The position numbers and the translations under genes are program-made. A stretch of DNA of 32,555 bases from NCBI GenBank assembly GCA_964607745.1, contig CAZSLG010000001.1, forward strand, positions 1 through 32,555, given 5' to 3'. Each line of letters starts with the position of its first letter. Position 1 is the stretch's first letter. Under the pieces are notes generated by a model, which searched no databases, was not told where the DNA came from, and saw nothing but the letters and a program-made list of their open reading frames with translations. The stretch comes from an uncultured Gammaproteobacteria bacterium. GTDB taxonomy: Bacteria; Patescibacteriota; Microgenomatia; UBA12405. Positions 15,253 to 32,555 of the stretch are shown here, one piece after another.

Positions 15253-16296
15253 ATGACTGAGAATGTAACTATTATTGGTGGTGGGCCGGCAGGACTATCT
15301 GCAGCGATTTATTTAGCCCGGGCCGACCTAAAACCTTTGGTATTTGCCGGATCACCTCCTGGCGGTCAATTAACCCTTACTTCAGAGGTGGAAAATTATC
15401 CGGGATTTGAATCAATTTTAGGTGCTGAACTGATCGAAAAAATGAGAAATCAAGCAAAGAAATTTGGAGCAAGGATAGTAGATGAGAATGTAATTAAAAT
15501 TGATTTTTCAAATAAGTCTAATGGGTCTCATAAGACTTATTTGACTAATAAGACATATAATTCAAAATCGGTCATCATCGCCACGGGCGCCAAAGCTTTA
15601 TGGTTAGGTCTTCCTTCTGAAACCCGATTACGCGGGAAAGGAGTGTCAGCATGTGCAACTTGTGACGGATTTTTTTTCCGTGAAAAAACGGTGGCTGTAA
15701 TTGGCGGAGGCGATACGGCCTTGGAAGAGGCTTTGACCTTGACAAAGTTCGCTAAGAAAGTATATATTATTCACCGACGGGATTTTTTTCGCGCGTCAAA
15801 GATAATGCAGGAACGGGTGGGGGTCGGTCACGCCCGACCCGTACAAAAAAATCCAAAAATTGAAATTATTTGGAATTCGGCAGTTGAGGAGATAATAGGG
15901 GAAAAACATGTTGAAGGAATTAAAATTAAAAACGTAGGGGTCGACCGTGGTCGACCCGAACAAGAAATCAAATTAGATGGCGTTTTCGTCGCGATTGGCC
16001 ACAAACCGGACACGAATTTATTTAAAGATAAGATAGAGCTTGATAGTAAGGGCTATATTTTAAATACAAAATATGTTGGAATTGAAAATTTGAACATTAA
16101 AAATTCAACGAAAATTGAAAATTTAAAATTAAAAATTCCGAAGTTTAATATTAATTACGGATCACAAACTTCGGTCCCCGGGGTTTTTGTTGCCGGTGAT
16201 TGTGCCGACCCATATTATCGCCAGGCAGTGACGGCGGCGGGGACGGGAGTTGAGGCAGCGCTGGAGGTAGAGAGATATTTGGAAAATGTAAAATGA
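15253..16296 (+). CDS. trxB: Thioredoxin-disulfide reductase carrying several in-frame palindromic or AT-rich insertions
   Basis: Matches to TrxB: IIGGGPAGLSAAIYLARA, GGQL..T.EVENYPGF, redox-active CATCDG, the second Rossmann motif VIGGGDTALEEA, HRRD.FRAS, FVAIGH.P.T, GVFVAGD and YRQAVTAAG.G. Extra segments are VGVGHARPVQ, VGVDRGRPEQ and KYVGIENLNIKNSTKIENLKLKIPKFNINYG. Confidence 0.93.
   Translation: MTENVTIIGGGPAGLSAAIYLARADLKPLVFAGSPPGGQLTLTSEVENYPGFESILGAELIEKMRNQAKKFGARIVDENVIKIDFSNKSNGSHKTYLTNKTYNSKSVIIATGAKALWLGLPSETRLRGKGVSACATCDGFFFREKTVAVIGGGDTALEEALTLTKFAKKVYIIHRRDFFRASKIMQERVGVGHARPVQKNPKIEIIWNSAVEEIIGEKHVEGIKIKNVGVDRGRPEQEIKLDGVFVAIGHKPDTNLFKDKIELDSKGYILNTKYVGIENLNIKNSTKIENLKLKIPKFNINYGSQTSVPGVFVAGDCADPYYRQAVTAAGTGVEAALEVERYLENVK
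15508..15544. repeat. Perfect 12-bp inverted repeat (family H) inside trxB
   Basis: TCAAATAAGTCT-N13-AGACTTATTTGA. It is related to the hairpin at 18848-18871 and a half-copy at 15227-15239. Translated as ..SNKSNGSHKTYLT.. Confidence 0.6.
15821..15844 (-). repeat. REP hairpin (GGGTCGG stem) in frame in trxB, with a degenerate head
   Basis: GGGTCGG-TCACGC-CCGACCC-GTAC. It is the same hairpin as 22200-22223 and 27356-27379 except that CTAC is replaced by GTAC. Confidence 0.8.
15934..15957 (+). repeat. REP hairpin, in frame in trxB
   Basis: GTAG-GGGTCGACC-GT-GGTCGACCC. Confidence 0.8.
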
Positions 16297-16297
16297 T

Positions 16298-16372
16298 GTA
16301 GGGGTTTCATTCATGAAACCCAAAAATGGCAAATAAATAACCATCGGTGGGTTTGATAAATCAAACCCCTAC
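16298..16372. repeat. Inverted REP doublet (REPIN-like) 2 nt after the trxB stop, a possible terminator
   Basis: GTAG-GGGTTTCAT-TC-ATGAAACCC (16298-16321) and GGGTTTGAT-AAA-TCAAACCC-CTAC (16349-16372) face each other. The linker contains CATCGGT, which is also seen next to REPs at 19803-19811 and 22050-22058. Confidence 0.75.
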
Positions 16373-16411
16373 GTTGGTATTAATTAATTATAAATTTGTT
16401 TTTTTCAAAAT

Positions 16412-17638
16412 ATGGATAGTCCAGGAAAGAAGATGCTTGAATCGGCACAAGCACTTATTACTAAAACCGCCGAAAAAATGCAGTTAGACCGCGAGATGAT
16501 CAAGCGCCTCATCGAGCCGGAATTTGCTCATGAATTTGCCCTCACAATTACCATGGATAGTGGCAAAAAAAAGGTCTTTAAGGGTTGGAGAATTCAACAT
16601 AATGGTGCCCTTGGACCTTATAAAGGTGGGATAAGATTTCATTTTGAAACCGTCCGTGAAGAAGTTCAAGCACTGGCAACTTTAATGTCAATTAAATGTG
16701 CCGTAGCCGGTCTTCCGTATGGTGGAGGAAAAGGTGGGATTGTGGTTGACCCAAAAAAACTATCAAAAACAGAATTAGAAAGGCTGTCAAGAGCTTTTGC
16801 CAACAGGATTGCTCATGTAATCGGAGAAGACGTTGATGTCCCGGCTCCCGACGTTAATACAACCCCGGAAATAATGGGCTGGATGCTTGATGAATATCAA
16901 AGAATAATTGGCCACAAAAGTCCGGCCACCTTTACTGGAAAACCAATTGCAATGGGCGGGAGTTTAGGAAGAACTGAGGCGACTGGTCGGGGTGGACTGT
17001 TTGGCCTATTATCTTTACTTGCTAAGATGAAGAAAAAGGCAAAAGGGACAACAGTGGCCGTCCAAGGATTTGGCAATGTTGGTTATTATTTTGCCAAACT
17101 GGCGACCGAGGTTGGTTTTAAAGTGGTGGCAATTTCCGATTCCAGATCAGGAGTTTATGATAAAAACGGAATTGATTTGGACCGCGCTTTAAAGAATAAA
17201 AAGGAAAAAGGAACCGTTTCATACGGTAAAACTATTTCCAATGAAGAATTATTAGAGCTCGATGTTGATGTATTAGTACCGGCTGCTCTTGAAAATATGG
17301 TCAATGAAAAGAATATGGCCAAAATCAAAGCGCCTATCATTGTTGAAATGGCTAATGGCCCATTAACTCAAGAAGCTTACGAATATTTAGCCAAAAAAGG
17401 CAAAGTAATCGTTCCTGATGTTTTTGCCAATTCCGGAGGAGTAATCGTTTCTTACCTTGAATGGGTTCAGGGTAAAGCCGGATTTTGGTGGAGCGAAAAA
17501 GAAGTTAATGATAAGCTGAAAGTTATGATGGAGAGGGCTTTTGAGGCGATCTGGAAAAAGTCTGTTGAAAAAAAGATGCCTTTGAAACAAGCAGCCTTTG
17601 AAGTCGCTCTTGAAAGAATCACATCGGCAATGGTTTGA
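16412..17638 (+). CDS. gdhA: Glutamate dehydrogenase (Glu/Leu/Phe/Val dehydrogenase family)
   Basis: Matches: GPYKGGIRFH, the catalytic-Lys region GLPYGGGKGGIVVDPK, DVPAPDVNT, the Rossmann motif VQGFGNVG, and a VPDV.ANSGGV..SY.EW.Q C-terminal domain. Confidence 0.9.
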   Translation: MDSPGKKMLESAQALITKTAEKMQLDREMIKRLIEPEFAHEFALTITMDSGKKKVFKGWRIQHNGALGPYKGGIRFHFETVREEVQALATLMSIKCAVAGLPYGGGKGGIVVDPKKLSKTELERLSRAFANRIAHVIGEDVDVPAPDVNTTPEIMGWMLDEYQRIIGHKSPATFTGKPIAMGGSLGRTEATGRGGLFGLLSLLAKMKKKAKGTTVAVQGFGNVGYYFAKLATEVGFKVVAISDSRSGVYDKNGIDLDRALKNKKEKGTVSYGKTISNEELLELDVDVLVPAALENMVNEKNMAKIKAPIIVEMANGPLTQEAYEYLAKKGKVIVPDVFANSGGVIVSYLEWVQGKAGFWWSEKEVNDKLKVMMERAFEAIWKKSVEKKMPLKQAAFEVALERITSAMV

Positions 17639-17649
17639 TTACTAATATT

Positions 17650-17736
17650 AAAGCGCGCCACTAAATTTTATTGCTCTGTTGGAGCCGCCTCGCAGTCGCG
17701 AGGTCCAAAGTCGCAAAAAATTAAGCGTCGCGCTTT
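17650..17736 (-). repeat. Family C long-palindrome element, copy C2 (inverted relative to C1), just after the gdh stop
   Basis: Its reverse complement aligns with 1834-1921 along the full length with only a few substitutions, judged by eye. Confidence 0.8.
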
Positions 17737-17751
17737 TGCGTATCTTTCCCA

Positions 17752-17760
17752 TGGTATAAT
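17752..17760 (+). promoter_or_regulatory. Extended -10 element TGGTATAAT upstream of the M23 peptidase gene
   Basis: Exact TGnTATAAT. GGAG at 17787-17790 is one of the few visible SD-like sites in the window. Confidence 0.45.
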
Positions 17761-17797
17761 GTAAGCCTGTTTTACTTGTATTGAGCGGAGTCGAAAT

Positions 17798-18853
17798 ATG
17801 AATGAAATAGGCGAGTTCATTATTTTTTTAAGAAACTATCTACTATCCCGACTTTTAAGCGCGGGGCATGTATTTGAAGGCATAAAAGACATTGTTGTTG
17901 CTTTCCTAATAGTTAAGAGAGGTAAGTATTCTTCGTCTTTTTTAAATACTTCCTTCTTGATGATCGTGGCTGCGGCTATAGTTGGCGGCCCGATCATTGC
18001 CGAAAACACTCCTTTTTTTCAATCGCTTGATGATCAAAATAATAATTACCAAGCTTTAGTAGTTTCTTACAATCCTTATGGCGGTTCCCTTTCAACCGTT
18101 TTTTCGGTTAAGCCGCGTGATAAAGTGGAAAACTATACGGTTCATGGCGGAGAAACACTAGCATCGATCTCAAAAAAATTTGACATATCTGTTGACACTA
18201 TTAGGTGGGCTAACAATTTGAAAGGGGATTTGATTAAACCGGATCAGGTTTTAAAAATTCCACCCGTGACCGGGATTGTCCACAAGGTGGCCTCGGGGGA
18301 AAATATCTATACGATTGCCAAAAAATATCATACTAACGCCCAAAACATATTAAATTTTCCGTTCAACAGTTTTGAAGATCTGGATACTTTTTCTCTTATG
18401 GCCGGACAAACTTTATATGTTCCAGACGGGACAATTGAACCGGAAAAACCCGCTTACCAGTTTGTTGCTTCGATCCAAGCGGGGACACAAGGATCCTCTA
18501 ATTTTATTTGGCCAACCTCAGGATCAATCACTCAGTCTCCAATTTGGTACCATATGGCTTTAGATATTGCCAACCCTTCGCTACCCCCAGTTCTGGCGGC
18601 TGATTCGGGAACGGTCGTCTATGCCGGTTGTCTTAACTGGGGTTATGGTTGCCACGTTATTATTGACCATGGTAATGGTTATCAAAGCCTTTATGCTCAT
18701 CTTTCTTCATATTCCCCCAACGTCGGAGACTCTGTTTCTCAAGGGTCACAGATTGGACTGATGGGGTCAACCGGAAGGTCAACCGGTACCCATTTGCATT
18801 TTGAGATCCGTTCGGGAGGGCAGATACTCAACCCATTGGGATTTCTTAAATAA
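17798..18853 (+). CDS. LysM-domain M23 family metallopeptidase (murein DD-endopeptidase-like)
   Basis: An N-terminal TM helix and two LysM repeats (YTVHGGETLASISKKF..., HKVASGENIYTIAKKY...). M23 motifs HMALDIA, IDHGNGYQSLYAHLS and GSTGRSTGTHLHFEIR are present. Confidence 0.9.
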   Translation: MNEIGEFIIFLRNYLLSRLLSAGHVFEGIKDIVVAFLIVKRGKYSSSFLNTSFLMIVAAAIVGGPIIAENTPFFQSLDDQNNNYQALVVSYNPYGGSLSTVFSVKPRDKVENYTVHGGETLASISKKFDISVDTIRWANNLKGDLIKPDQVLKIPPVTGIVHKVASGENIYTIAKKYHTNAQNILNFPFNSFEDLDTFSLMAGQTLYVPDGTIEPEKPAYQFVASIQAGTQGSSNFIWPTSGSITQSPIWYHMALDIANPSLPPVLAADSGTVVYAGCLNWGYGCHVIIDHGNGYQSLYAHLSSYSPNVGDSVSQGSQIGLMGSTGRSTGTHLHFEIRSGGQILNPLGFLK

Positions 18854-18871
18854 GACTAATGAGTCTTATTT
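18848..18871. terminator. Family H hairpin between convergent genes, a candidate bidirectional terminator
   Basis: AAATAAGACT-AATG-AGTCTTATTT is a perfect 10-bp stem. It overlaps the TAA of the M23 gene and lies 16 nt from the stop of the minus-strand gene. The stem is AT-rich, so terminator strength is uncertain. Confidence 0.4.
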
Positions 18872-18886
18872 GACTTATTTGGAAAC

Positions 18887-20917
18887 TTATTTCGCTTCCG
18901 GACTGGCATCTTTTGGCAACTCCAGCTTTGGGTTGATCTGAGCTGCTGGAGGCGTTGGCAGAATTAGATCGCTCTCAGTTTGTTTGTTAGTTTTATTCAC
19001 AGACCCATCTTCTTCCGGAAGCATTTTTTTAAACTCTTCCAATTCTTTCATCACTTTATCATAATCGGCTTTATTTAGTTTCGGGTCGATCAGTTTTATG
19101 GTTGCCTGCAAAGCGTTGACGGCCTGGGGATAATTTTTTTTCTGAAAATTAGCCCAGGCGTAGTTGTAGCTGGCATTAGGCCAATCAGGTTTCAAGGAGA
19201 TCGCCTGTTCAAAAAATCTTAAAGCATCGTCATATTTATTTTGAGAATAGTAGACCCCACCCAAACTGACTCGATATACCGGGTTTTGCGGGTCAGCTAA
19301 AATTGCCCGTTGGTAAGCCGAAATAGTCCAGACATCAGCGCCCTGGGCGGCATTAATGATATTAAGATAGATTTGAGCAAGACCGTTCCAGTTATCCGCT
19401 TTTTGCGGGTTCAAAGAAATGACCGCTTTTGCTTCGGTGATGGACGCCTGAACGGCTTGAGTTATAGTTTGACGGTCCTGTTCGGAAATTTTTTTTGTCT
19501 GGTCTTTTTTGACAATTCCATTGGCGATCAGAAGATTGGTTTGGGCAAAATTACTTCTAAACCTTTCAACGTACGGATTTAAAATAATCGCCTGTCTTTG
19601 GTTGTCATAAACTAGTTTGGCATTGTTTAAAGCTATACCGTCAATTGATTTTTTGAAAAAATATTCAGAAGCATAGGCGCGGCCGAGAAAATAACCGGAT
19701 ACACCGATCAGACCTAGGGAAATAATAATAACACCAAGATAAATAGGCAACAAGTCAGTTAAATCAAAATCTGTAGGGGTTTTGCGCGAAAAACACGTAT
19801 GATCATCGGTCGTAGGGGTTTGATTTATCAAACCCAATATCACAAAAAACAGAAACCAGACGATCAGGGAAGGAGAAAAGACGAAAAAACAAACAATCAA
19901 ATAAATAAATAAAATAAAATGTAGGGGTCGGGCGTGACCGACCCGCAATATTTGTTTGATTGCATAAACAACCAACAAACCAAACGCCAGTAATCCAAAA
20001 ATACCCGTTTCGGTGAAGATTTGCAAAATTGCCGAACGGGAAACATTAAAACTATTGATCTGCCACAATGGGGATTGGTTATACGCAAAGTCTTTTACCC
20101 GGGTAAAAATAGCGGAAAAATTATCCGGACCAATGCCGATTATTGCCGTCTGAGGGTTTTTCAGAATTTCCAGGGCAGCAAACCAGGAAAGCCGGAAGGG
20201 AGGTAATATTGTAGAGACGCCCAAATTGGGCGTCTGTACCGGTTTCATTATCGAATAAACAGTGAATAATAGGGCGGTCAGAGACAAGATAATAGATCCT
20301 AGATGATAAATGATAGACTGTTGGGGAGAGGTCTCTTCGCCTTTTTTCAAAAGATTAACAATAGCAATAATCGTAAAAAATCCCAGTAGAATTGCCAGAT
20401 CTAATTGTGCACCGACTGGGGTAAAACCTGGATTTTTGAGAAAGGCAAGATTTTGTGGAAGAGCAACGTTTTTGAAAGGTTGAAAATAGAAAATTATTGT
20501 GACCAACGATAGAATGATTGACATCAATTGTAGGGGTCGGGCGTGACCGACCCGTATTTCCGATTGAATTCGCGAAATATAAAAATACAAAACCGCCAAC
20601 GAAATCAACATCACCAACCCGAAATTTGGATTTAATAATGCCTGAATCTTGTTGGGTGAAGAAAGCAAAGTTGATACAGCAACAGACGTTAAAAAAAGAA
20701 GGATCAGCTTGTCAAAGGGTCGTTTTTCCCAAGATATTTTTTTGGAAACAATAATCTGGACGGTAGAGATCAAGACGAGCAATAAAACTCCAAAACCCAA
20801 AAGGTATAACTTGTTAGTGACAAAATATTCCTGGGTAAAATTAAGGAAGAAAAATGGAAATAAAAAGACCAAAGAATAAAGGAAAGTAGTCAAAATTTTT
20901 TGAAAAAAATTATTCAT
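18887..20917 (-). CDS. Wzy_C / O-antigen-ligase-like polytopic membrane protein with a C-terminal TPR domain and multiple in-frame REP insertions
   Basis: It has 10 or more TM segments and a loop ending ..FTETGIFGLLAFGLL typical of the family. The C-terminal TPR repeats read AYQRAILADPQNP...ALRFFEQAISLKPDWPNASYNYAW. REP-derived peptides are RVGHARPLQ, RVGHARPLH, VQTPNLGVST and TPTTDDHTCFSRKTPTD. Confidence 0.8.
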   Translation of the reverse strand: MNNFFQKILTTFLYSLVFLFPFFFLNFTQEYFVTNKLYLLGFGVLLLVLISTVQIIVSKKISWEKRPFDKLILLFLTSVAVSTLLSSPNKIQALLNPNFGLVMLISLAVLYFYISRIQSEIRVGHARPLQLMSIILSLVTIIFYFQPFKNVALPQNLAFLKNPGFTPVGAQLDLAILLGFFTIIAIVNLLKKGEETSPQQSIIYHLGSIILSLTALLFTVYSIMKPVQTPNLGVSTILPPFRLSWFAALEILKNPQTAIIGIGPDNFSAIFTRVKDFAYNQSPLWQINSFNVSRSAILQIFTETGIFGLLAFGLLVVYAIKQILRVGHARPLHFILFIYLIVCFFVFSPSLIVWFLFFVILGLINQTPTTDDHTCFSRKTPTDFDLTDLLPIYLGVIIISLGLIGVSGYFLGRAYASEYFFKKSIDGIALNNAKLVYDNQRQAIILNPYVERFRSNFAQTNLLIANGIVKKDQTKKISEQDRQTITQAVQASITEAKAVISLNPQKADNWNGLAQIYLNIINAAQGADVWTISAYQRAILADPQNPVYRVSLGGVYYSQNKYDDALRFFEQAISLKPDWPNASYNYAWANFQKKNYPQAVNALQATIKLIDPKLNKADYDKVMKELEEFKKMLPEEDGSVNKTNKQTESDLILPTPPAAQINPKLELPKDASPEAK
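19773..19835 (+). repeat. Two tandem REP-like units joined by the ATCATCGGTC linker, in frame in the Wzy_C gene
   Basis: GTAGGGGTTTTGCGCGAAAAAC (weak stem), then GATCATCGGTC, then GTAG-GGGTTTGAT-TT-ATCAAACCC. The second stem is nearly the same as at 16349-16368. Confidence 0.7.
19921..19944 (+). repeat. REP hairpin in frame in the Wzy_C gene
   Basis: GTAG-GGGTCGG-GCGTGA-CCGACCC. Confidence 0.85.
20211..20239. repeat. GTAG-headed perfect palindrome in frame in the Wzy_C gene
   Basis: GTAG-AGACGCCCAA-A-TTGGGCGTCT-GTAC. Confidence 0.65.
20530..20553 (+). repeat. REP hairpin in frame in the Wzy_C gene, identical to 19921-19944
   Basis: GTAG-GGGTCGG-GCGTGA-CCGACCC. Confidence 0.85.
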
Positions 20918-20936
20918 ATCTACATAATAATACAGA

Positions 20937-21761
20937 TCAATCTGGGAAACAAGCCTTTACACAAGTAGTGACATCGGTGTAATAAGTTTCACCCGGGTGG
21001 ATCGCTTTACATGCAGCATAATCGCCACAAGCATTACAGTTCGGATTGACAAATAGGGTAGCAAAGGTTGAACAGTTACCAACATAGACAATGGTTGGAT
21101 TCGGGCTGGGAGCAATTCCGGTCGGGGTGGGAGTAGGAGTGGGAGTTGAAGAGATACTTGGAGTGGCGGTAGGAGTTAATGGATTCGGGGTTGAAGTTGG
21201 ATTAGGAACTGACGTAGCCGTTGGATTTGGAGGATTGGTAGTTGGACCAATTCCTTCTTCAAGGATAATATTGGAACTTGAAAGAAAATAATTATAGTTT
21301 ATGTTTCCTGGTGGTCCACAGCCGTTTTGGCAGCCAACCTCAGAGATCACAGGGTCACTGTTATTTGATAGTGAGGTATATGTGATATACCAACCGGGAC
21401 AACTGCTTCCATCAGTTTGGTAAAGATATTTTTTGTTTGGCTGTCTCGGATCACAGGGAAGGCTGGAAAGATAAGGAGAAAATGACGGCGACTGTGGTTC
21501 CGTGCCGCAAATATGACAGGAGTTATTAGAGTCGACCGTGTCATAGCAAATATCTTGGGCTTTTGGATAGCAGTTTTTATCGTTGTACCAATCTTCAAGG
21601 ACTTTTCCTAACGATGATAATTCACTCTTTCTTTTGCTGTCCTGGCTTTTGTTGATCTGTCCGAAGGGATTTAAGGAAACTAAAAGGGCCGTGGCTAAAA
21701 TAACCAGTAGAACGATAACGATCAACAATTCCATCAGGGTGAAACCTCTTTTCATTTTCAT
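20937..21761 (-). CDS. Type IV pilin / pseudopilin with a PT-rich linker and a Cys-rich C-terminal module
   Basis: The class III signal MKMKRGFTLMELLIVIVLLVILA has G before F and E at +5. It is followed by [35 protein letters not shown] and a C-terminal Cys cluster. Confidence 0.88.
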   Translation of the reverse strand: MKMKRGFTLMELLIVIVLLVILATALLVSLNPFGQINKSQDSKRKSELSSLGKVLEDWYNDKNCYPKAQDICYDTVDSNNSCHICGTEPQSPSFSPYLSSLPCDPRQPNKKYLYQTDGSSCPGWYITYTSLSNNSDPVISEVGCQNGCGPPGNINYNYFLSSSNIILEEGIGPTTNPPNPTATSVPNPTSTPNPLTPTATPSISSTPTPTPTPTGIAPSPNPTIVYVGNCSTFATLFVNPNCNACGDYAACKAIHPGETYYTDVTTCVKACFPD

Positions 21762-21776
21762 AATTTTATTTTACAC

Positions 21777-22337
21777 CTATTTTTTATTTGCATTCACCGG
21801 ATTATTTCGATCCCGATCCCACATCAATGGGTTGTTAATAATATATTCACGGATTTTATTTAGATCGGATTCATTATGGATGATGTGTTCGTAATAATTG
21901 CGTTGGAATATTTTTTTGCCAGGTGTATTTCGTAATTTATTAATTTGTTTTGAACATTCCGTTTTAAACATCCCAACGATAAAACCCAACGTGCCTGTAG
22001 GGGCGCGGCGTGACGCGCCCGTATCAAATAATTGTGACGCGCCCGTAATCATCGGTCGTGCGCCCGAAACAATATGTAAAATAAAATGTACGTGATTTGG
22101 CATTATTTGAAATGCATCCAATTCAACCGGATGATGTTTGGGTAATGATTCCCATACATTTTCAATGATTTTTCCGTATTGATTTAAATTCATTGAAACG
22201 GGTCGGTCACGCCCGACCCCTACAACAATATCCCCAAACAAACATTCCCGGTTTTCTGTACAAATTGTGACAAAATACAACCCCGATTTTGAATAATCAT
22301 AATTTTGTAACCTGATTGATTGTCTATTTTTGACCAT
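21777..22337 (-). CDS. REP-associated tyrosine transposase (RAYT; IS200/IS605-type Y1 HUH enzyme), copy 1
   Basis: Matches: RLQNYDYS..GLYFVTICT..R...FG, the HUH motif MPNHVHFILH, the catalytic Tyr region FQRNYYEHIIHNE..L..IREYIINNP..W. It has an ATG start. Confidence 0.88.
   Translation of the reverse strand: MVKNRQSIRLQNYDYSKSGLYFVTICTENRECLFGDIVVGVGRDRPVSMNLNQYGKIIENVWESLPKHHPVELDAFQIMPNHVHFILHIVSGARPMITGASQLFDTGASRRAPTGTLGFIVGMFKTECSKQINKLRNTPGKKIFQRNYYEHIIHNESDLNKIREYIINNPLMWDRDRNNPVNANKK
21997..22047 (+). repeat. REP hairpin inside RAYT copy 1, plus a 24-bp extra segment repeating its 3' half
   Basis: GTAG-GGGCGCG-GCGTGA-CGCGCCC at 21997-22020. GTGACGCGCCCGTA occurs at both 22010-22023 and 22034-22047. 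RAYT copy 2 lacks the extra 24 bp (8 aa, SQLFDTGA). Confidence 0.8.
22200..22223 (-). repeat. REP hairpin inside RAYT copy 1
   Basis: GGGTCGG-TCACGC-CCGACCC-CTAC, read in the gene as VGVGRDRP. Confidence 0.85.
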
Positions 22338-22367
22338 ATTTTTATGGTGTTTACCCCGTAAACTTGT

Positions 22368-25300
22368 TTACGGGGATCCCGTTGCCGGACCGAATCTAAT
22401 TGAACTATTTTCGTTATATAAGGTCTTGATTTGTAACGGGGTCAGGGCGTAATTGAAAACCCGGACATCGTCTATCTGGCCGTTGAAATAGCGGTTAACA
22501 GCTTCTGTATCATTTCCAATTATGAGTGACTGTCCTGATGTTGTTATTCCGCCAGAATAATTAACACTATTTTCCTGTTTTCCATTGACAAACACTTTTG
22601 CAGTTGTGCCGTCATATGTTGCGGTAACAAAAAACCAATCACCAGTTTCTATATTTGTTGTTCCGGTTAGAGTCTGGTATGGAGAACCACCAATGTCAAA
22701 TCTTAAACGACTAGAGTTGTCAATGTTAATTTGATAACCAGTGTTAACAAATTTATCTATTATTCCTGAATAATTGTTTGTTCCTGATGTTTTAATCCAT
22801 GCGGCAACAGTAATGGAATTTGAATTTAGTGCAGAATTATCAGTAATTGAAACATAATCATCCGTTCCGTCGAATTCCAGACTGGAGTTATATTTTCCGG
22901 TTACCCCGTCTTTCCAGGCCTCGCCGGCACTACCCGTACAAGTCCCCGCTGAAGTATTTGTTCCCGTTGCTCCAATTGTGATTGTCCCGCTATTTCCATT
23001 ACCGGATGAGTCGTTAGCAGTATTTCCTTGACACTCATCCATCTTCCAATGTCCCACCGGCCCGCCGCGATTGTAGTCCCAGGCGATTTGAGCCGGCGTT
23101 CGGGCGTAGTTGTAGATACGGACGTGGTCAATAGTGCCTTGAAATTCTTCCCATGCCGAAGCAGAACAACAAGCATTTCCTAAGATATCATTTTGAGCAT
23201 TGGTAATATCAATTATTGTGGACATTGATTGTGTAGTTCCAACATTAATTGATCCGTCAATATATAGAACAGCGTTACCGTCTCGGTCTCCAACCAAGGT
23301 GGCATTATGCCAATTGTTATCTATGTAGGTTGAGGTAGTTGCGCTATTAATGAAATGGCCGCCATTGTCCCTAATATAATATGAAACTTCTCCTGTTCCA
23401 GCAACGAAAAGTCCAATACCAGCCCAATCAATACCTCCATCTCTGCTGTCGAAGATTGTTTGAGTATAACTGGATCCTGTGCTTTTAAACCAAGCTGAAA
23501 TAGTAATGTCTTTATTAGTGCTAAAAGTAGTAGCGGAATTATATGGAACACTAATTAGATCGGACCAATCATTGCCCCCGTCGAAATTAATACCTGAACC
23601 AAATTTTCCTGAACGCCACCTAGGGCTACCAGTAAATGTTCCGGTTAGTCCATTCCCACTCGTATCATACGCGTTCGTGCCGGTTTTTTCGTCAAACTTC
23701 CATTCGCCAACCGGAGCAGAGCAGGAAGTCGTATCTCCTGGAACGCAATATCCACGGGCGGAAGAATTATCCGCTACAGCGCCTGTCGAATCGGTTGACA
23801 CAGAGCCTAAAACCATCGCTGATCCATGATTATAGTCCAATTTTATTTCGTCTGACGTGAGAGCAGAGTTATAAATTTTCACTTCGTCAATTAACCCATT
23901 AAAATAAAATCCGGAAGCATTAAAAGTACCAATAAGAAGATCAATACTGGAAGTTGTCAAAGAAAAAGTACGAGCGGTCGAAAATTTATTAATTCCATCT
24001 AAATATCCTGCCCACGTAGTTCCATCATAACTGTAGATAATCTGATGCCAATTAGTATCGGAAATAGTAATACCCGAACCAGTTCGAGGATTAGAGCCGG
24101 TATAACTACCGGAATAAAATTCAACTTGGTTATCAACATATTCCCAAATAATAGAATAAGAATTATCAGTTCCAGCATCATTTCTTTTGCTAATCAAGTA
24201 GCGATTAGTTTGAGTGAGATCAGAGGGTTTCAACCATAATGAAATGGTAAAACTATTAGTTAAATCAACACTGTTATTATCAGGGATATCTACATAATCA
24301 CCATTACCGTCAAAATTAATTGCTTTGCCAAATTTCCCGTTCATTGACCAGGTGGCATTGGTTTTTGTTCCATCCAATGCGGAACCTACGTTACCGGAAT
24401 TACACACGTCGTTTACTCCGCTGGAGCAGGTGTTGTCCGCGCCTTCGTCAAATTTCCAATATCCAAGTTGCGAACCAACCGGACTTCCACCCACGGGGTG
24501 GCCGGCGTTCATATCCTCGACGATTTGCTTGGAGTTACGGACGTAGTTATAGAGTTTTACTTCATCAAGCTTCCCGGCTAAATAGTTAGTGGAAATTTTT
24601 CCGAAATTAAGGGCGGAAGCATTTAGATTAGTTGCGGTCGTGACAGTTATATATTGCCACTGGTTAGCAGCCAAAGTTAAAGAAACAACACCGTTGACGT
24701 AAATAGTTGGAGAAGTAAATCCGGTCGCAGATAATGTTCCGGAGGTGGCAGAAATATAAGCTGAACCGTTTAAGTCAACAAAATAATTGGTTGTTGAAGT
24801 CGGATACGTCCAAAAGGAAACAGAGTTAACGATCGTTGGACCGGTGCCTTGAGAAATATAATCATCGGTACCGTTAAAATTTCCGGCCGAACCAAATTTA
24901 CCGGTCGTCCAATGGCTTGCACCTGTCCCATTCCAGGTGCCGGTGTATCCGTTGCCACTGATATCATTGATCGACGCACCGGTTTTTTCATCAAAGTTCC
25001 AAGATCCAACCGGACCAGGAGCCCAGTAGTATAGGTCTCGAACTTCTTTTCCGGAAAGGGCACGGTTGTATATACGGGCTTCGTCGATTTTGCCGTTAAA
25101 TTCATATGATGATAAACCAGCCTGTCTTGAACCAAATATTAAAGAGTTATCATTTGTAGAAGGTGTATTTGTAATGGTAGTATCTTTTTCTTTTAGTTCA
25201 CCGTTTTGATATATATACAAAGTATTATTTATATCATCAAAAACTCCAATAATATGAACCCATTGTCCTGTGGGAATAGCGGTTTGAGTATCAACTTCTG

Positions 25301-26885
25301 ATTGAACAGAGTTAGTTCCATAAAAACCGAATCTTACAATAGTACCACCAGAATCGTAAAAGAAACCATAATTCCCCATATTACTAGATTGATCTTTGGC
25401 AACAATGCCAGCGTAAGCAATTTGAGTACCGTTGGAATAAACCCAAGTTGATAAGGTAAAAGATGAAGAAAACTCCCAGGCAGAGTTTTCTGTCACCGAA
25501 GTGTAATCATCAATTCCATCGTAAGTGGTAGAATTTCCAAATTTTCCAGCGGCAGAAGTAGTATTACCATTCCAAGCGCCGTTGCTGGCGTTACCGGAAG
25601 AGTCGCAAGAATCATTAACTCCACCTGTACATGTATTAACAGCTGACTCATCCATCTTCCAATATCCCACTAATCCATCGGAAAAAGATGATAGATTTTT
25701 GATGTTGGATCCTAAACTAGCAGCTGTGCCTTTTACCGATCCAGAGCCTTTTGAAGCAAAGTCAGATTTAATTTGAGCCGCCGAGCGGGCATATTGGTAA
25801 ATTTTAACATCATCAACAAATCCATTAAAACGATAAGCGCTATTATTGGTAATGCCACCTATTCTAAGAGGATTACTTTGTGTGCTATTTCCGGCGGTGC
25901 CAGTCCATGAAGCTTGGGTAACCAGCTGTCCATCTCGATACAATTTTAATCCTGAGGTTTCTACAACAGCAACTAAATGGGTCCAATTATTTGTAGCGGT
26001 GCCAAAAGAGTATCCATAACCACTTGAATATAACTTATTATTTGCATCTACAAAATAATAAAAATAATAACTTCCGCTGGAAGAATCAATATTCCATCCA
26101 TTGCTTGCAGCTGCGGGATATTTACTAACAATTGCCTTCCAGTCTCCTTGATTAATAGTAGTTGACTTGACCCAAGTTTCAATTGTTAAAGGCAAATTTA
26201 CTTGATTAGTTTTATGAGGAATATCGACGTAATCTCCAGCATCAAAATATAGACATTTTCCGGACACGCATTGATCTTCAGATTTCCAAGTAGGGGCCGC
26301 AGTTGATGTTCCAAACACGCCGGTATTAGAATTTTTAGTAGAATCATTTGTGTTCGTCCCATATCCCTCATCAAACTTCCAGTAAGAGATCGGGGCGGCG
26401 CCGTTTTCTTCGGAGGCGGCGGTCGGGCCGGAAGTCGGGGAGAAAGTCGCTTGGGAAAATTGGGCGGAAACTGTGCCATTTTGTACCGATGGATTTCCGT
26501 AATAGTGGTATAAATTTGTGTTTCCGGTATTGATAGTTGGAACTAACACATAATAATCAGTTGAGTTTGTATTGCATGCGCCGCCTTCCGTGTCAATAAA
26601 ATATTGAAGCACACGTCCGTTAATATTTGTGAATCTAGAATCACCGCAGTCGGTCTGCAACTTTCCGGCGGTAATAAGAGTTGCCGTATCAACATCAAAC
26701 TTTACTTTTTTATCACTGTCTGCACTTCCGGTATTGCCGATCGTTAATCCAGTTCGATAAAGCCAGCTATCATTCATCCATGCCGCCTGAACCTTTGACT
26801 GATATTTGGTTACGAGATAAAAAATCGGCAGGGTAATGATCAAAAAAATCACCGAAAAAAGCATTATTTTCCGTTTTAAAACCAT
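22368..26885 (-). CDS. Giant surface protein: N-terminal TM anchor, DUF2341-like domain, then about six LamG / concanavalin-A-like lectin repeats
   Basis: MVLKRKIMLFSVIFLIITLPIFYLV is the TM anchor. WMNDSWLYRTGLTI...DCGDSRFTN.NG..L.Y.ID resembles DUF2341. Each LamG repeat ends [ILV]D[ED][VA][KR][ILV][YF]N.A[LR][ST]..[EQ]I...Y, six times. The track start at 26966 would add 27 aa that include a REP, so I prefer the ATG at 26885. Confidence 0.82.
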   Translation of the reverse strand: MVLKRKIMLFSVIFLIITLPIFYLVTKYQSKVQAAWMNDSWLYRTGLTIGNTGSADSDKKVKFDVDTATLITAGKLQTDCGDSRFTNINGRVLQYFIDTEGGACNTNSTDYYVLVPTINTGNTNLYHYYGNPSVQNGTVSAQFSQATFSPTSGPTAASEENGAAPISYWKFDEGYGTNTNDSTKNSNTGVFGTSTAAPTWKSEDQCVSGKCLYFDAGDYVDIPHKTNQVNLPLTIETWVKSTTINQGDWKAIVSKYPAAASNGWNIDSSSGSYYFYYFVDANNKLYSSGYGYSFGTATNNWTHLVAVVETSGLKLYRDGQLVTQASWTGTAGNSTQSNPLRIGGITNNSAYRFNGFVDDVKIYQYARSAAQIKSDFASKGSGSVKGTAASLGSNIKNLSSFSDGLVGYWKMDESAVNTCTGGVNDSCDSSGNASNGAWNGNTTSAAGKFGNSTTYDGIDDYTSVTENSAWEFSSSFTLSTWVYSNGTQIAYAGIVAKDQSSNMGNYGFFYDSGGTIVRFGFYGTNSVQSEVDTQTAIPTGQWVHIIGVFDDINNTLYIYQNGELKEKDTTITNTPSTNDNSLIFGSRQAGLSSYEFNGKIDEARIYNRALSGKEVRDLYYWAPGPVGSWNFDEKTGASINDISGNGYTGTWNGTGASHWTTGKFGSAGNFNGTDDYISQGTGPTIVNSVSFWTYPTSTTNYFVDLNGSAYISATSGTLSATGFTSPTIYVNGVVSLTLAANQWQYITVTTATNLNASALNFGKISTNYLAGKLDEVKLYNYVRNSKQIVEDMNAGHPVGGSPVGSQLGYWKFDEGADNTCSSGVNDVCNSGNVGSALDGTKTNATWSMNGKFGKAINFDGNGDYVDIPDNNSVDLTNSFTISLWLKPSDLTQTNRYLISKRNDAGTDNSYSIIWEYVDNQVEFYSGSYTGSNPRTGSGITISDTNWHQIIYSYDGTTWAGYLDGINKFSTARTFSLTTSSIDLLIGTFNASGFYFNGLIDEVKIYNSALTSDEIKLDYNHGSAMVLGSVSTDSTGAVADNSSARGYCVPGDTTSCSAPVGEWKFDEKTGTNAYDTSGNGLTGTFTGSPRWRSGKFGSGINFDGGNDWSDLISVPYNSATTFSTNKDITISAWFKSTGSSYTQTIFDSRDGGIDWAGIGLFVAGTGEVSYYIRDNGGHFINSATTSTYIDNNWHNATLVGDRDGNAVLYIDGSINVGTTQSMSTIIDITNAQNDILGNACCSASAWEEFQGTIDHVRIYNYARTPAQIAWDYNRGGPVGHWKMDECQGNTANDSSGNGNSGTITIGATGTNTSAGTCTGSAGEAWKDGVTGKYNSSLEFDGTDDYVSITDNSALNSNSITVAAWIKTSGTNNYSGIIDKFVNTGYQINIDNSSRLRFDIGGSPYQTLTGTTNIETGDWFFVTATYDGTTAKVFVNGKQENSVNYSGGITTSGQSLIIGNDTEAVNRYFNGQIDDVRVFNYALTPLQIKTLYNENSSIRFGPATGSP

Positions 26886-26914
26886 ATTAAAAATATTTAT
26901 TTTTTGATTATCAT

Positions 26915-26938
26915 GGGCGAGTCGCGCCTCGCCCCTAC
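26915..26938 (-). repeat. REP hairpin between RAYT copy 2 and the preferred LamG gene start
   Basis: GGGCGAG-TCGCGC-CTCGCCC-CTAC. Confidence 0.8.
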
Positions 26939-26962
26939 ATTTTATGTATCGATATGTTTTTT

Positions 26963-27493
26963 TCATATTGTATTTTTTGGATTATTTCTATCCCGATCCC
27001 ACATTGTTGGGTTGTTGATAATATATTCACGGATTTTATTTAAATCATTTTCCGTACGAATAATATGTTCGTAATAATTGCGTTGAAATATTTTTTGACC
27101 AGGCGTATTTTGTAATTTATTGATTTGTTTTGTGCATTCCGTTTTGAACATTCCAACGACGAAACCCAACGCGCCTGTAGGGGCGCGGCGTGACGCGCCC
27201 GTAATCATCGGTTGTGCACCCGAAACAATATGTAAAATAAAATGTACGTGATTTGGCATTATTTGAAACGCGTCCAATTCGACCGGATGATGATCGGGTA
27301 ATGATTTCCATATATTTTCAATGATTTTTCCGTATTGATTTAAATTCATTGAAACGGGTCGGTCACGCCCGACCCCTACAACAATATCACCCAATAAACA
27401 TTCCCTGTTTTGGGTACAAATCGTTATAAAATACAATCCCGATTGGGAATAATCATAATTTTTTAATCTGATTGATTGACGGTTTTTATTCAT
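26963..27493 (-). CDS. REP-associated tyrosine transposase (RAYT), copy 2
   Basis: By eye, close to nine-tenths identical to copy 1 at protein level, with the same HUH and Tyr motifs. The ATG at 27493 (MNKNRQSIRL) is preferred over the track's TTG at 27505. Its stop overlaps the track ATG at 26966 in an ATGA arrangement. Confidence 0.88.
   Translation of the reverse strand: MNKNRQSIRLKNYDYSQSGLYFITICTQNRECLLGDIVVGVGRDRPVSMNLNQYGKIIENIWKSLPDHHPVELDAFQIMPNHVHFILHIVSGAQPMITGASRRAPTGALGFVVGMFKTECTKQINKLQNTPGQKIFQRNYYEHIIRTENDLNKIREYIINNPTMWDRDRNNPKNTI
27177..27200 (+). repeat. REP hairpin inside RAYT copy 2
   Basis: GTAG-GGGCGCG-GCGTGA-CGCGCCC. Confidence 0.85.
27356..27379 (-). repeat. REP hairpin inside RAYT copy 2
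   Basis: GGGTCGG-TCACGC-CCGACCC-CTAC. Confidence 0.85.
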
Positions 27494-27494
27494 A

Positions 27495-32555
<5,061 letters not shown>

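Follow-up and report, generated by a model that had tools for sequence, protein, structure and literature searches.

The window analyzed here, a stretch of 32,555 bp with a G+C content of ~40%, is the entire contig CAZSLG010000001.1. It comes from a Roizmanbacteria-like bacterium from groundwater, a member of the Microgenomates within the candidate phyla radiation (CPR). Between 15.8 and 27.4 kb, it carries a family of short hairpins headed by GTAG, together with two genes for REP-associated tyrosine transposases (RAYT1 and RAYT2). The hairpins are probably repetitive extragenic palindromes (REPs) of the GTAG class, which belong to a REPtron of the TnpAREP subclass 2.4/RAYT group 4 type and persist as tolerated coding inserts in this Roizmanbacteria-like genome. 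Taken jointly, the identity of the elements and their tolerance are considered probable. A sequence-only reading of the window had already proposed a GTAG-class REP family with its RAYT genes, inserted in frame in conserved genes. This proposal is supported by the covariation of the stems, the motifs of the RAYTs, empty sites in relatives and the multiple frames and orientations in which the elements are read. The coordinates of all elements and genes are given in Table 1.

Structure of the Hairpin Elements

An unconstrained hairpin scan (stem of at least 7 bp, loop of 2-8 nt, no sequence prior) identified 13 G+C-rich hairpins between positions 15821 and 27375. Twelve of them are exactly 20 nt long and have the form GGG…CCC, the exception being a 21-nt hairpin with the stem AGACGCCCA. 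The hairpins adjoin a GTAG head, apart from the first copy in trxB (site 1), which adjoins GTGG on the plus strand (15817-20) or GTAC on the minus strand (15841-44) and has its loop flipped compared to the canonical copy. The REP unit is 24 nt long and consists of a GT[AG]G head and a 20-nt hairpin, the stem of which opens with three G-C pairs. In total, 13 clean elements and one degenerate element (19773-96) are present between 15.8 and 27.4 kb, and the remaining 21 kb of the window contain zero copies. All seven stems named in the sequence-only reading were recovered. Its count of at least 14 hairpins is reached when the degenerate copy, with a stem of 5 bp, is added to the 13 clean ones.

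A scan for GTAG followed by a hairpin returned 12 elements and one AT-rich site that resembles a chance match. In comparison, 200 dinucleotide-preserving shuffles gave a mean of 0.34 sites and a maximum of 3.

The stems vary in sequence and remain paired. In the aligned 24-nt units, 98.2% of the stem cells are paired, versus 73% in column shuffles, and none of the 500 shuffles reaches 98.2%. When the register is slid, pairing falls to 22-57%. Compensatory, double-sided changes occur in four of the seven stem pairs. This covariation shows that the earlier description of the GTAG-headed hairpins, as conserved in structure and not in sequence, was correct.

The elements thus show the characteristic features of GTAG-class REPs: they are multicopy, G+C-rich hairpins with GT[AG]G at the foot. 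They depart from the extragenic location of REPs, as 10-11 of the 14 window copies lie inside long open reading frames (ORFs). A single REPIN-like inverted doublet is found, in the spacer between trxB and gdh, with its partners 27 nt apart; the other copies are singlets or head-to-tail arrays.

The Two RAYT Genes

RAYT1 and RAYT2 are both intact. They are 88% identical in protein and lie 4.6 kb apart, and their similarity in DNA is confined to the ORFs. The 180-aa ORF of RAYT2 likely starts at the ATG at 27493, which yields a protein of 176 aa; the gene call in contig L001 is also 176 aa long. The presence of two RAYT genes, as claimed from the sequence, is supported by PF01797 (Y1_Tnp), which matches the two proteins with 29.3 and 26.8 bits (cutoff 23), and by the HUH and Y-x3-N motifs, which are kept. 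The HUH motif reads NHVHFI. Its two histidines, H86 and H88 in the numbering of the 180-aa ORF, do not vary among 26 homologues and correspond in the alignment to the HUH motifs of 4ER8 and 2F4F. In REYIINNP, Y161 and N165 are likewise invariant in the 26 homologues and align with DYIYINP of 4ER8 (Y115/N119). Y161 and N165 are the predicted catalytic tyrosine and metal ligand.

The profile of the RAYT family matches the E. coli TnpAREP structure 4ER8 (weakly, E = 5e-5) and the Sulfolobus IS200-type transposase 2F4F. In this distant alignment, the putative GTAG-contact strand IWQPRFWEHAIRN aligns with IFQRNYYEHIIRN of 4ER8, and equivalents of the E. coli GTAG contacts Q95, E100, H101 and R104 are kept in the RAYTs. 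QRNYYEH had been a candidate for the catalytic tyrosine motif and was ruled out, as the alignment with 4ER8 places it on the GTAG-contact strand.

Cognate REPs are located within ~1 kb of the RAYT genes, as is characteristic of a REPtron: each RAYT contains two, and another one follows RAYT2 at 25 nt. The internal copies occupy two sites, called A and B. Site B is filled in all 26 homologues with lineage-specific palindromes. The encoded peptides are GASRRAPT, GGSRPAPT, GAGFKPAPT or MGLINQTPT, with tandem expansions of 8 aa; in RAYT2, site B is one unit (8 aa) shorter than in RAYT1. Site A is absent in four of the 26 homologues (P0068, P0071, P0094 and P0117).

The reverse complement of the GTAG head at site B (CCCCTAC; 21997-22003 and 27177-27183) encodes the Pro-Thr that opens the helix after the HUH strand. 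This proline is invariant in the 26 RAYT homologues, and a proline is aligned with it in 2F4F (PPRYAP). Because the REP head overlaps the conserved proline codon, the internal RAYT copy is possibly ancestral or a master copy.

The two genes share the same orientation. Each is situated directly downstream of a giant surface-protein gene (encoding a LamG-repeat and a collagen-like protein, respectively), and together they bracket the 4.6-kb LamG gene. The ATG of the LamG ORF overlaps the RAYT2 stop, and the true LamG start is uncertain. The REP at 26915-26938 falls within the first 18 codons of this ORF (codons 10-18), which makes its coding status ambiguous. In contig L149, a REP of a different type is found at this place, in the opposite orientation.

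Coding Status and Location in Protein Loops

Ten clean copies and the degenerate one are located in long ORFs, in frame and with zero stops. Two are found in trxB, four clean copies and the degenerate one in a gene for a polytopic membrane protein with a C-terminal TPR domain (membrane/TPR gene), two in RAYT1 and two in RAYT2. These are the counts given in the sequence-only reading (2, 5 and 4 for trxB, the membrane/TPR gene and the RAYTs), one of them being degenerate, and the absence of stops that it reported is confirmed. The copies at 16298 and 16349 are intergenic, and the one at 26915 is uncertain. The identity of trxB is secured by a TIGR01292 score above the cutoff. For the membrane/TPR gene, previously called Wzy_C/TPR, the TPR part of the name is supported by Pfam. 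A Pfam match to Wzy_C was found neither in the intact protein nor after excision of the REP peptides. PF04932 (Wzy_C) is a precomputed match on some homologues only, and the protein is O-antigen-ligase-like by homologues only.

The 24-nt unit corresponds to eight codons. Five of its six frames are stop-free, and the stop occurs solely in the frame that splits the head into G and TAG. This frame is used at none of the 67 non-redundant intragenic sites. Three frames are dominant, reading V-G…P, …P-L-Q and …P-T. All measurable indels amount to 24 nt or multiples of 24.

The location of the peptides was examined in AlphaFold (AF2) models, with a mean predicted local distance difference test (pLDDT) score of 79.5 for RAYT2 and 72 for trxB. 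Site B of the RAYT (residues 98-110) is modeled as a disordered loop with pLDDT <50 that connects the HUH strand to the following helix, and site A as the turn of a β-hairpin between strands 39-43 and 51-55. In trxB, the first insert is coil (pLDDT <50) and the second one forms the turn between strands 222-227 and 237-240; this second site also falls in a hypervariable loop of the orthologue alignment. The elements of the membrane/TPR gene sit in inter-helix loops. Surface loops had been expected for the inserts; in the RAYT and trxB models, the encoded peptides occupy predicted loops, in coil or turns and mostly of low pLDDT.

Empty Sites and Strain-Level Turnover

Comparison with relatives reveals that the hairpins are insertions. 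In 19 orthologues of trxB, site 1 is either VGVGHARP or an exact gap of eight residues, the gap being found in most relatives. At the DNA level, the empty allele (L006) reads GAACGGGT followed directly by A, and the window carries 24 extra bases at this junction. This is the single clean empty/filled pair of DNA sequences, it has a 2-nt ambiguity (GT), and no target-site consensus can be derived from it. Contig L154 (726-749) holds the canonical GTAGGGGTCGGGCGTGACCGACCC at this site, read as VGVGRDRP. The window copy at trxB site 1 thus represents this hairpin with an inverted loop and with GTG in place of GTA.

Opposite orientations of the 6-nt loop at one protein site were observed twice: between the window (15817-15844) and L154, and between the window (19921-19944) and L175/P0330. 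The sites with VGVGHARP in one relative and VGVGRDRP in the other suggest an in-place inversion of the palindrome rather than a fresh insertion.

Empty sites, which the sequence-only reading had proposed to look for in orthologues of trxB and of the "Wzy_C" gene, were found in both. The membrane/TPR gene contains four inter-helix loops that are hypervariable across species. Depending on the species, these loops hold the window elements, other hairpin families (GLINQTPT, RAIHESLLQ, GDHKGSPLQ), an element in opposite orientation (GVGRDRPV), tandem expansions ((VGHAQLMG)n), or they are empty. Site 2 (20211-20235) is empty in P0275 and P0294 and carries GLINQTPT in others. Site 3 (19921-19944) is empty in P0312 and P0325 and carries GVGRDRPV in L175/P0330. 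The type of REP located at 19812-19835 also fills site B of the RAYT in L171/P0087.

Differences are also found between close strains. Contigs L001-L005 are 98-99.6% identical to the window and show a difference of one 24-nt unit at site A of RAYT1; L001 (99.6% identical) has one additional unit there. Near-identical contigs contain two, three or five units of one array. These 24-nt differences indicate recent turnover.

Other in-frame repeats were noticed in the same genes. A third insertion in trxB, of ~36 aa (window 16060-16170, aa ~270-305, …IENLNIKNSTKIENLKLKIPKFNI…), is absent in many orthologues. It consists of direct and palindromic repeats rich in A+T (AATTGAAAATTT) and resembles a separate repeat family, likewise in frame. 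Owing to four hypervariable sites of this kind, the lengths of CPR trxB orthologues lie between 295 and 402 aa. A further recurrent in-frame peptide, …MKQWNN(E/L)TI… or NNETMKQCNN, is found in some species at the same loop sites of the membrane/TPR gene (site 3 in L139/L155, site 1 in L175/P0250/P0312/P0330) and in the transketolase of L143. It points to an additional, non-GTAG repeat family in these genomes.

Distribution in Related Metagenome Contigs

The metagenome sample consisted of contigs with the exact 24-mer GTAGGGGTCGGGCGTGACCGACCC (52 contigs, 327 kb). They contain 135 elements of the same architecture with 27 stem variants, including double-foot elements in L129, L138 and L172 among others. 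A degenerate pattern, GTAGGGGNNNNGCGYGANNNNCCC, was too loose for use on genome contigs, the matches listed being chance matches in high-GC genomes. The same structures occur in dozens of independent metagenomes, which excludes a sequencing or assembly artifact.

Of the 135 elements, 60 are located in RAYT ORFs, 63 in further ORFs of 150 aa or more, three in frames of 80-149 aa and nine in a short frame or none. Hence, 123 of 135 lie in ORFs of at least 150 aa, compared with a background of 84.7% of positions in such frames. After removal of the seed sequence, RAYT copies and redundant contigs, 31 elements are left; 23 of them occupy ORFs of 150 aa or more, and five are in frames below 80 aa. 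Set against the background, 23 of 31 corresponds to a non-coding enrichment of about two-fold at most, and coding DNA is therefore not avoided. The elements are distributed roughly as the coding density alone predicts. Host genes confirmed by Pfam encode a transketolase, ribosomal protein L1, RecF, a P-type ATPase, an ADP-forming acetyl-CoA synthetase, ComEA and a ComEC-like metallo-beta-lactamase.

Half-Unit Arrays and Origin of the Elements

In arrays where 24-nt units follow each other head to tail, the leading unit alone is a complete, foldable REP. In the later units, the 3' part of the loop (GTGA) and the 3' arm are exact, and 13 unrelated nucleotides replace the head and the 5' arm. The imbalance is large, with orphan 3' halves numbering 22 and 22 versus 2 and 6 for orphan 5' halves. 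The distance of the orphan 3' halves from a complete REP upstream is exactly 24, 48 or 72 nt. Such arrays are found in the window (21997-22068 and 27177-27224), in L001 (6900-6970) and in L132, L141, L152, L127 and L131. In the array at site B of RAYT1, the first 3'-half unit is GTGACGCGCCC and the second is degenerate. This pattern could have arisen in any of three ways: by slippage between 3' arms, by cleavage within the loop by the RAYT, or by selection acting against tandem units that can fold or be cleaved. The 3'-half arrays are the main evidence against a simple whole-unit cut-and-paste of GTAG and hairpin.

The most likely explanation is a RAYT-associated spread of REPs with near-neutral, in-frame persistence; catalysis by the RAYTs, the path of transposition and neutrality at the protein level are inferred. 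By analogy with the TnpAREP of E. coli, Stenotrophomonas and Marinomonas, the HUH/Y1 nuclease of the RAYT would recognize one strand by its folded hairpin and GTAG head, with cleavage and rejoining of the DNA next to the hairpin. Through this cutting and rejoining, units could spread, be excised or be rearranged, probably on single-stranded DNA at replication forks. An insertion in a surface or inter-helix loop would add about eight residues (VGVGRDRP, RVGHARPLQ or GASRRAPT, according to frame and orientation) to a protein that still works. It would be tolerated because the unit is eight codons long and free of stops in five of the six frames. In a compact genome (about 85-93% coding), insertions of this kind would not be purged, which would lead to a distribution resembling the coding density, including the two RAYT loops.

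Several observations weigh against this explanation. The polymorphic 24-nt units are often 3' halves and not whole REPs. NCBIfam NF047646 (REP_Tyr_transpos) scores the two RAYTs at 65 and 64 bits, below its cutoff of 80. The E. coli residue W94 is a phenylalanine in the window RAYTs and a tryptophan in several homologues. Two RAYT copies are present instead of the usual single copy per genome, a feature that is typical and not strictly defining. Finally, the metagenome sample was seeded by one exact REP and includes redundant contigs, which makes its proportions approximate.

It is unlikely that the repeats, though real, were moved without the RAYT. On such a view, gene conversion, replication slippage or template switching primed by hairpins would have generated and spread them, and the RAYT genes would be one more permissive host or be domesticated for another task. 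The arrays of 3' halves and the excess of orphan 3' over 5' halves would fit such a process, as would the loop flips at a fixed site and the copy-number variation among near-identical contigs, which resembles slippage; RAYT activity in vivo is also still unproven in the literature. However, slippage alone is insufficient to place 24-nt units with precise boundaries and conserved GTAG heads at many unrelated loci. The elements also cluster tightly around two intact and conserved RAYT genes, in which several residues aligned with the GTAG contacts of 4ER8 are conserved.

A selection of the hairpins for a host role at the DNA or RNA level (translational pausing, mRNA stabilization, gyrase or nucleoid sites) is less probable still. 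In favor of such a role, species that share 55-80% identity have one hairpin family or another at the same loop sites of trxB, the RAYTs and the membrane/TPR gene, all 26 aligned homologues of the RAYT have a filled site B, and host roles are documented for classical REPs (PMC3733652). Yet close orthologues of trxB and of the membrane gene have empty sites, the host genes are functionally unrelated, orientation and frame differ at the same site, and occupancy follows the coding density and not the class of gene.

Similar peptides recur in many proteins, but the readings of GVGRDRP/GVGHARP as a selected protein motif with incidental palindromy, or of the ORFs as artifacts or pseudogenes with non-coding hairpins, have almost no probability and were rejected: at least four combinations of frame and orientation are in use for the same DNA, giving unrelated peptides, and this DNA also occurs between genes; the compensatory changes in the stems keep the pairing and not the peptide; and the host ORFs are full-length, their matches to curated models extend across the insert, and many independent metagenomes contain them in conserved form.

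Relation to Known REP/RAYT Systems

The sequence-only reading had regarded the systematic in-frame occupancy of housekeeping genes by REPs as unusual. This novelty was overstated. GTAG and CGTC REPs located in frame inside genes have been described in several species, foremost Opitutus terrae, and it has been argued that intragenic REPs sit in permissive loops (Di Nocera et al. 2013, PMC3733652). The window elements resemble them as GTAG palindromes that lie in frame in genes of known function, encode short extra peptides and often form dimers or arrays. The REPs of that study are mostly intergenic, with an intragenic minority enriched in replication and repair genes. In contrast, about three quarters to nine tenths of the present elements are found in long ORFs of unrelated functions, near the coding fraction.

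The closest match is TnpAREP subclass 2.4 (Quentin et al. 2018, PMC6006769), which equals RAYT group 4 of Bertels et al. 2017. In this subclass, stems open with three G-C pairs, "double-foot" variants (GT[AG]G...C[TC]AC) occur, and the predominant in-frame insertion of REPs within the tnpAREP gene, between HuH and Y, has been called a "remarkable and unique feature" (PMC6006769). The system of the window shares the HUH/Y1 core without a long C-terminal domain, the GT[AG]G REPs, the three G-C pairs and the double-foot variants. It also shares the REP inside the RAYT between HuH and Y (site B), seen in 26 of 26 homologues. Published members of the subclass are mainly from Cyanobacteria and Bacteroidetes and have "long" REPs (PMC6006769). 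Unlike them, the present system has a CPR/Microgenomates host, a short and fixed 24-nt unit, two RAYT copies 4.6 kb apart and a second insertion site (A) between β1 and αA. The window RAYTs may accordingly be described as of the subclass 2.4/group 4 type, an assignment made by shared features rather than by the HMMs (hidden Markov models) or phylogeny of those authors.

The likeness to the REP/BIME (bacterial interspersed mosaic element) and TnpAREP system of E. coli (4ER8; PMC3479197, PMC8266576) concerns the GTAG head at the foot of the hairpin and the match of the RAYT profile. In that system, a Y1 HUH enzyme recognizes the GTAG-footed hairpin as folded single-stranded DNA. Biochemistry on three TnpAREPs other than those of the window shows that they recognize a folded single strand through GTAG and the hairpin, and cleave at flanking CT or CA (PMC8266576). 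Unlike the window units, the REPs of E. coli are about 35 nt long, imperfect with a bulge, and strictly extragenic. Its TnpAREP, of group 2, has a C-terminal tail contacting GTAG, which also sets it apart from the window RAYTs.

Rickettsia palindromic elements are roughly 100-150 bp long and AT-richer, and they are not known to have a GTAG head or an associated RAYT. Like the window elements, they are palindromic repeats in frame in many genes that stay functional (Ogata et al., as cited in PMC3733652). With their different size and head, this likeness is a functional analogy only, limited to the in-frame palindromic inserts.

A full-text literature search returned no paper linking the CPR or Patescibacteria with RAYT or REP. 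The window is the first case in the CPR found in the literature searched, of a kind of system that is already known. Its additions to the published picture are modest: the fixed 24-nt unit, the second RAYT site, the near-neutral occupancy of coding sequence and the 3'-half arrays.

Gene Layout and Other Features

The nearest named relatives of the window proteins are from Candidatus Roizmanbacteria GW2011_GWC1_37 and GWC2_37. The 1636-aa protein encoded on the minus strand contains, in its N-terminal ~350 residues, a collagen-like GPTGATGVT array (window 31324-32555) with a period of 27 nt, about 45 copies and a local G+C content of 56%. Its ORF has a GTG start at 32405; the contig ends 150 nt beyond it, still within tandem-repeat DNA. 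Between RAYT1 and the end of the LamG gene, a G+C-rich hairpin of 10 bp (CCCCGTAAAC/tt/GTTTACGGGG; 22354-22375) has no GTAG head. It is outside the REP family and may be a terminator. Rfam gave no match in the window at the gathering threshold.

Table 1. Genes and REP elements of the window between 15,253 and 32,405, in order of position.
Feature	Positions	Strand	Stem, hairpin or profile match	Encoded peptide and remarks
trxB (thioredoxin-disulfide reductase)	15253-16296	+	TIGR01292, 366 bits (cutoff 343)	
REP, trxB site 1	15817-15844 (hairpin 15821-15840)		GGGTCGG/tcacgc/CCGACCC	VGVGHARP, aa 189-196
REP, trxB site 2	15934-15957	+	GTAG+GGGTCGACC/gt/GGTCGACCC	VGVDRGRP, aa 228-235
REP, intergenic	16298-16321	+	GGGTTTCAT stem	2 nt past trxB stop; doublet partner of 16349
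REP, intergenic	16349-16372	-	GGGTTTGAT stem	Inverted partner of 16298-16321
gdh (glutamate dehydrogenase)	16412-17638	+		
LysM/M23 peptidase	17798-18853	+		
Polytopic membrane protein, C-terminal TPR domain	18887-20917	-	TPR Pfam matches	
Degenerate REP, membrane/TPR gene	19773-19796	+	5-bp stem	TCFSRKTPT; antisense to gene
REP, membrane/TPR gene	19812-19835	+	GGGTTTGAT stem	LGLINQTPT
REP, membrane/TPR gene	19921-19944	+	GGGTCGG stem	RVGHARPLH
REP (25 nt), membrane/TPR gene	20211-20235	+	GTAG+AGACGCCCA/aat/TGGGCGTCT	QTPNLGVST
REP, membrane/TPR gene	20530-20553	+	GGGTCGG stem	RVGHARPLQ
Pilin-like protein	20937-21761	-		
RAYT1, Y1 HUH tyrosine transposase-like	21777-22337	-		186 aa
Array, RAYT1 site B	21997-22068	+	GGGCGCG stem (full REP)	Full REP 21997-22020 (GASRRAPT) and two 24-nt 3'-half units
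REP, RAYT1 site A	22200-22223	-	GGGTCGG stem	VGVGRDRP
LamG-repeat protein	22368-26966	-		1532 aa
REP by RAYT2/LamG	26915-26938	-	GGGCGAG stem	25 nt downstream of RAYT2 stop
RAYT2	26963-27505	-		180-aa ORF
Array, RAYT2 site B	27177-27224	+		Full REP 27177-27200 (GASRRAPT) and one degenerate 3'-half unit
REP, RAYT2 site A	27356-27379	-	GGGTCGG stem	VGVGRDRP
Collagen-like protein	27495-32405	-		1636 aa

Implications

A further, tentative possibility is that the REP family of this CPR lineage is a coding-sequence-adapted element, with a RAYT-driven turnover of "loop cassettes". The fixed 24-nt unit, the five stop-free frames out of six and the recurrence at the same protein loops speak for it, as do the exchange with other hairpin families, the flips and the 3'-half arrays at those loops. 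If this were true, the elements would be a lineage-wide source of variation in protein loops and a read-out of the RAYT reaction in vivo, of which the 3'-half arrays could be the footprint. The copy inside the RAYT could then be a master or an autoregulatory copy. The asymmetric 3'-half arrays are the most promising lead.

The in-frame hairpin elements explain the odd insertions of eight residues, or multiples of eight, that enlarge and diversify otherwise conserved proteins of Microgenomates (VGVGRDRP, RVGHARPLQ, GASRRAPT, GLINQTPT). Such inserts are a possible source of error in annotation, in alignment and in HMM scoring: the HMM match of trxB, for example, is broken into two stretches, and the RAYTs fall below the NCBIfam cutoff. 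The empty and filled sites, the 24-nt indels between strains, the loop flips and the half-unit arrays form a natural data set on the action of RAYTs in vivo, and they are a natural experiment on the tolerance of proteins to loop insertions. The picture of REP/RAYT subclass 2.4 is hereby extended to the candidate phyla radiation.

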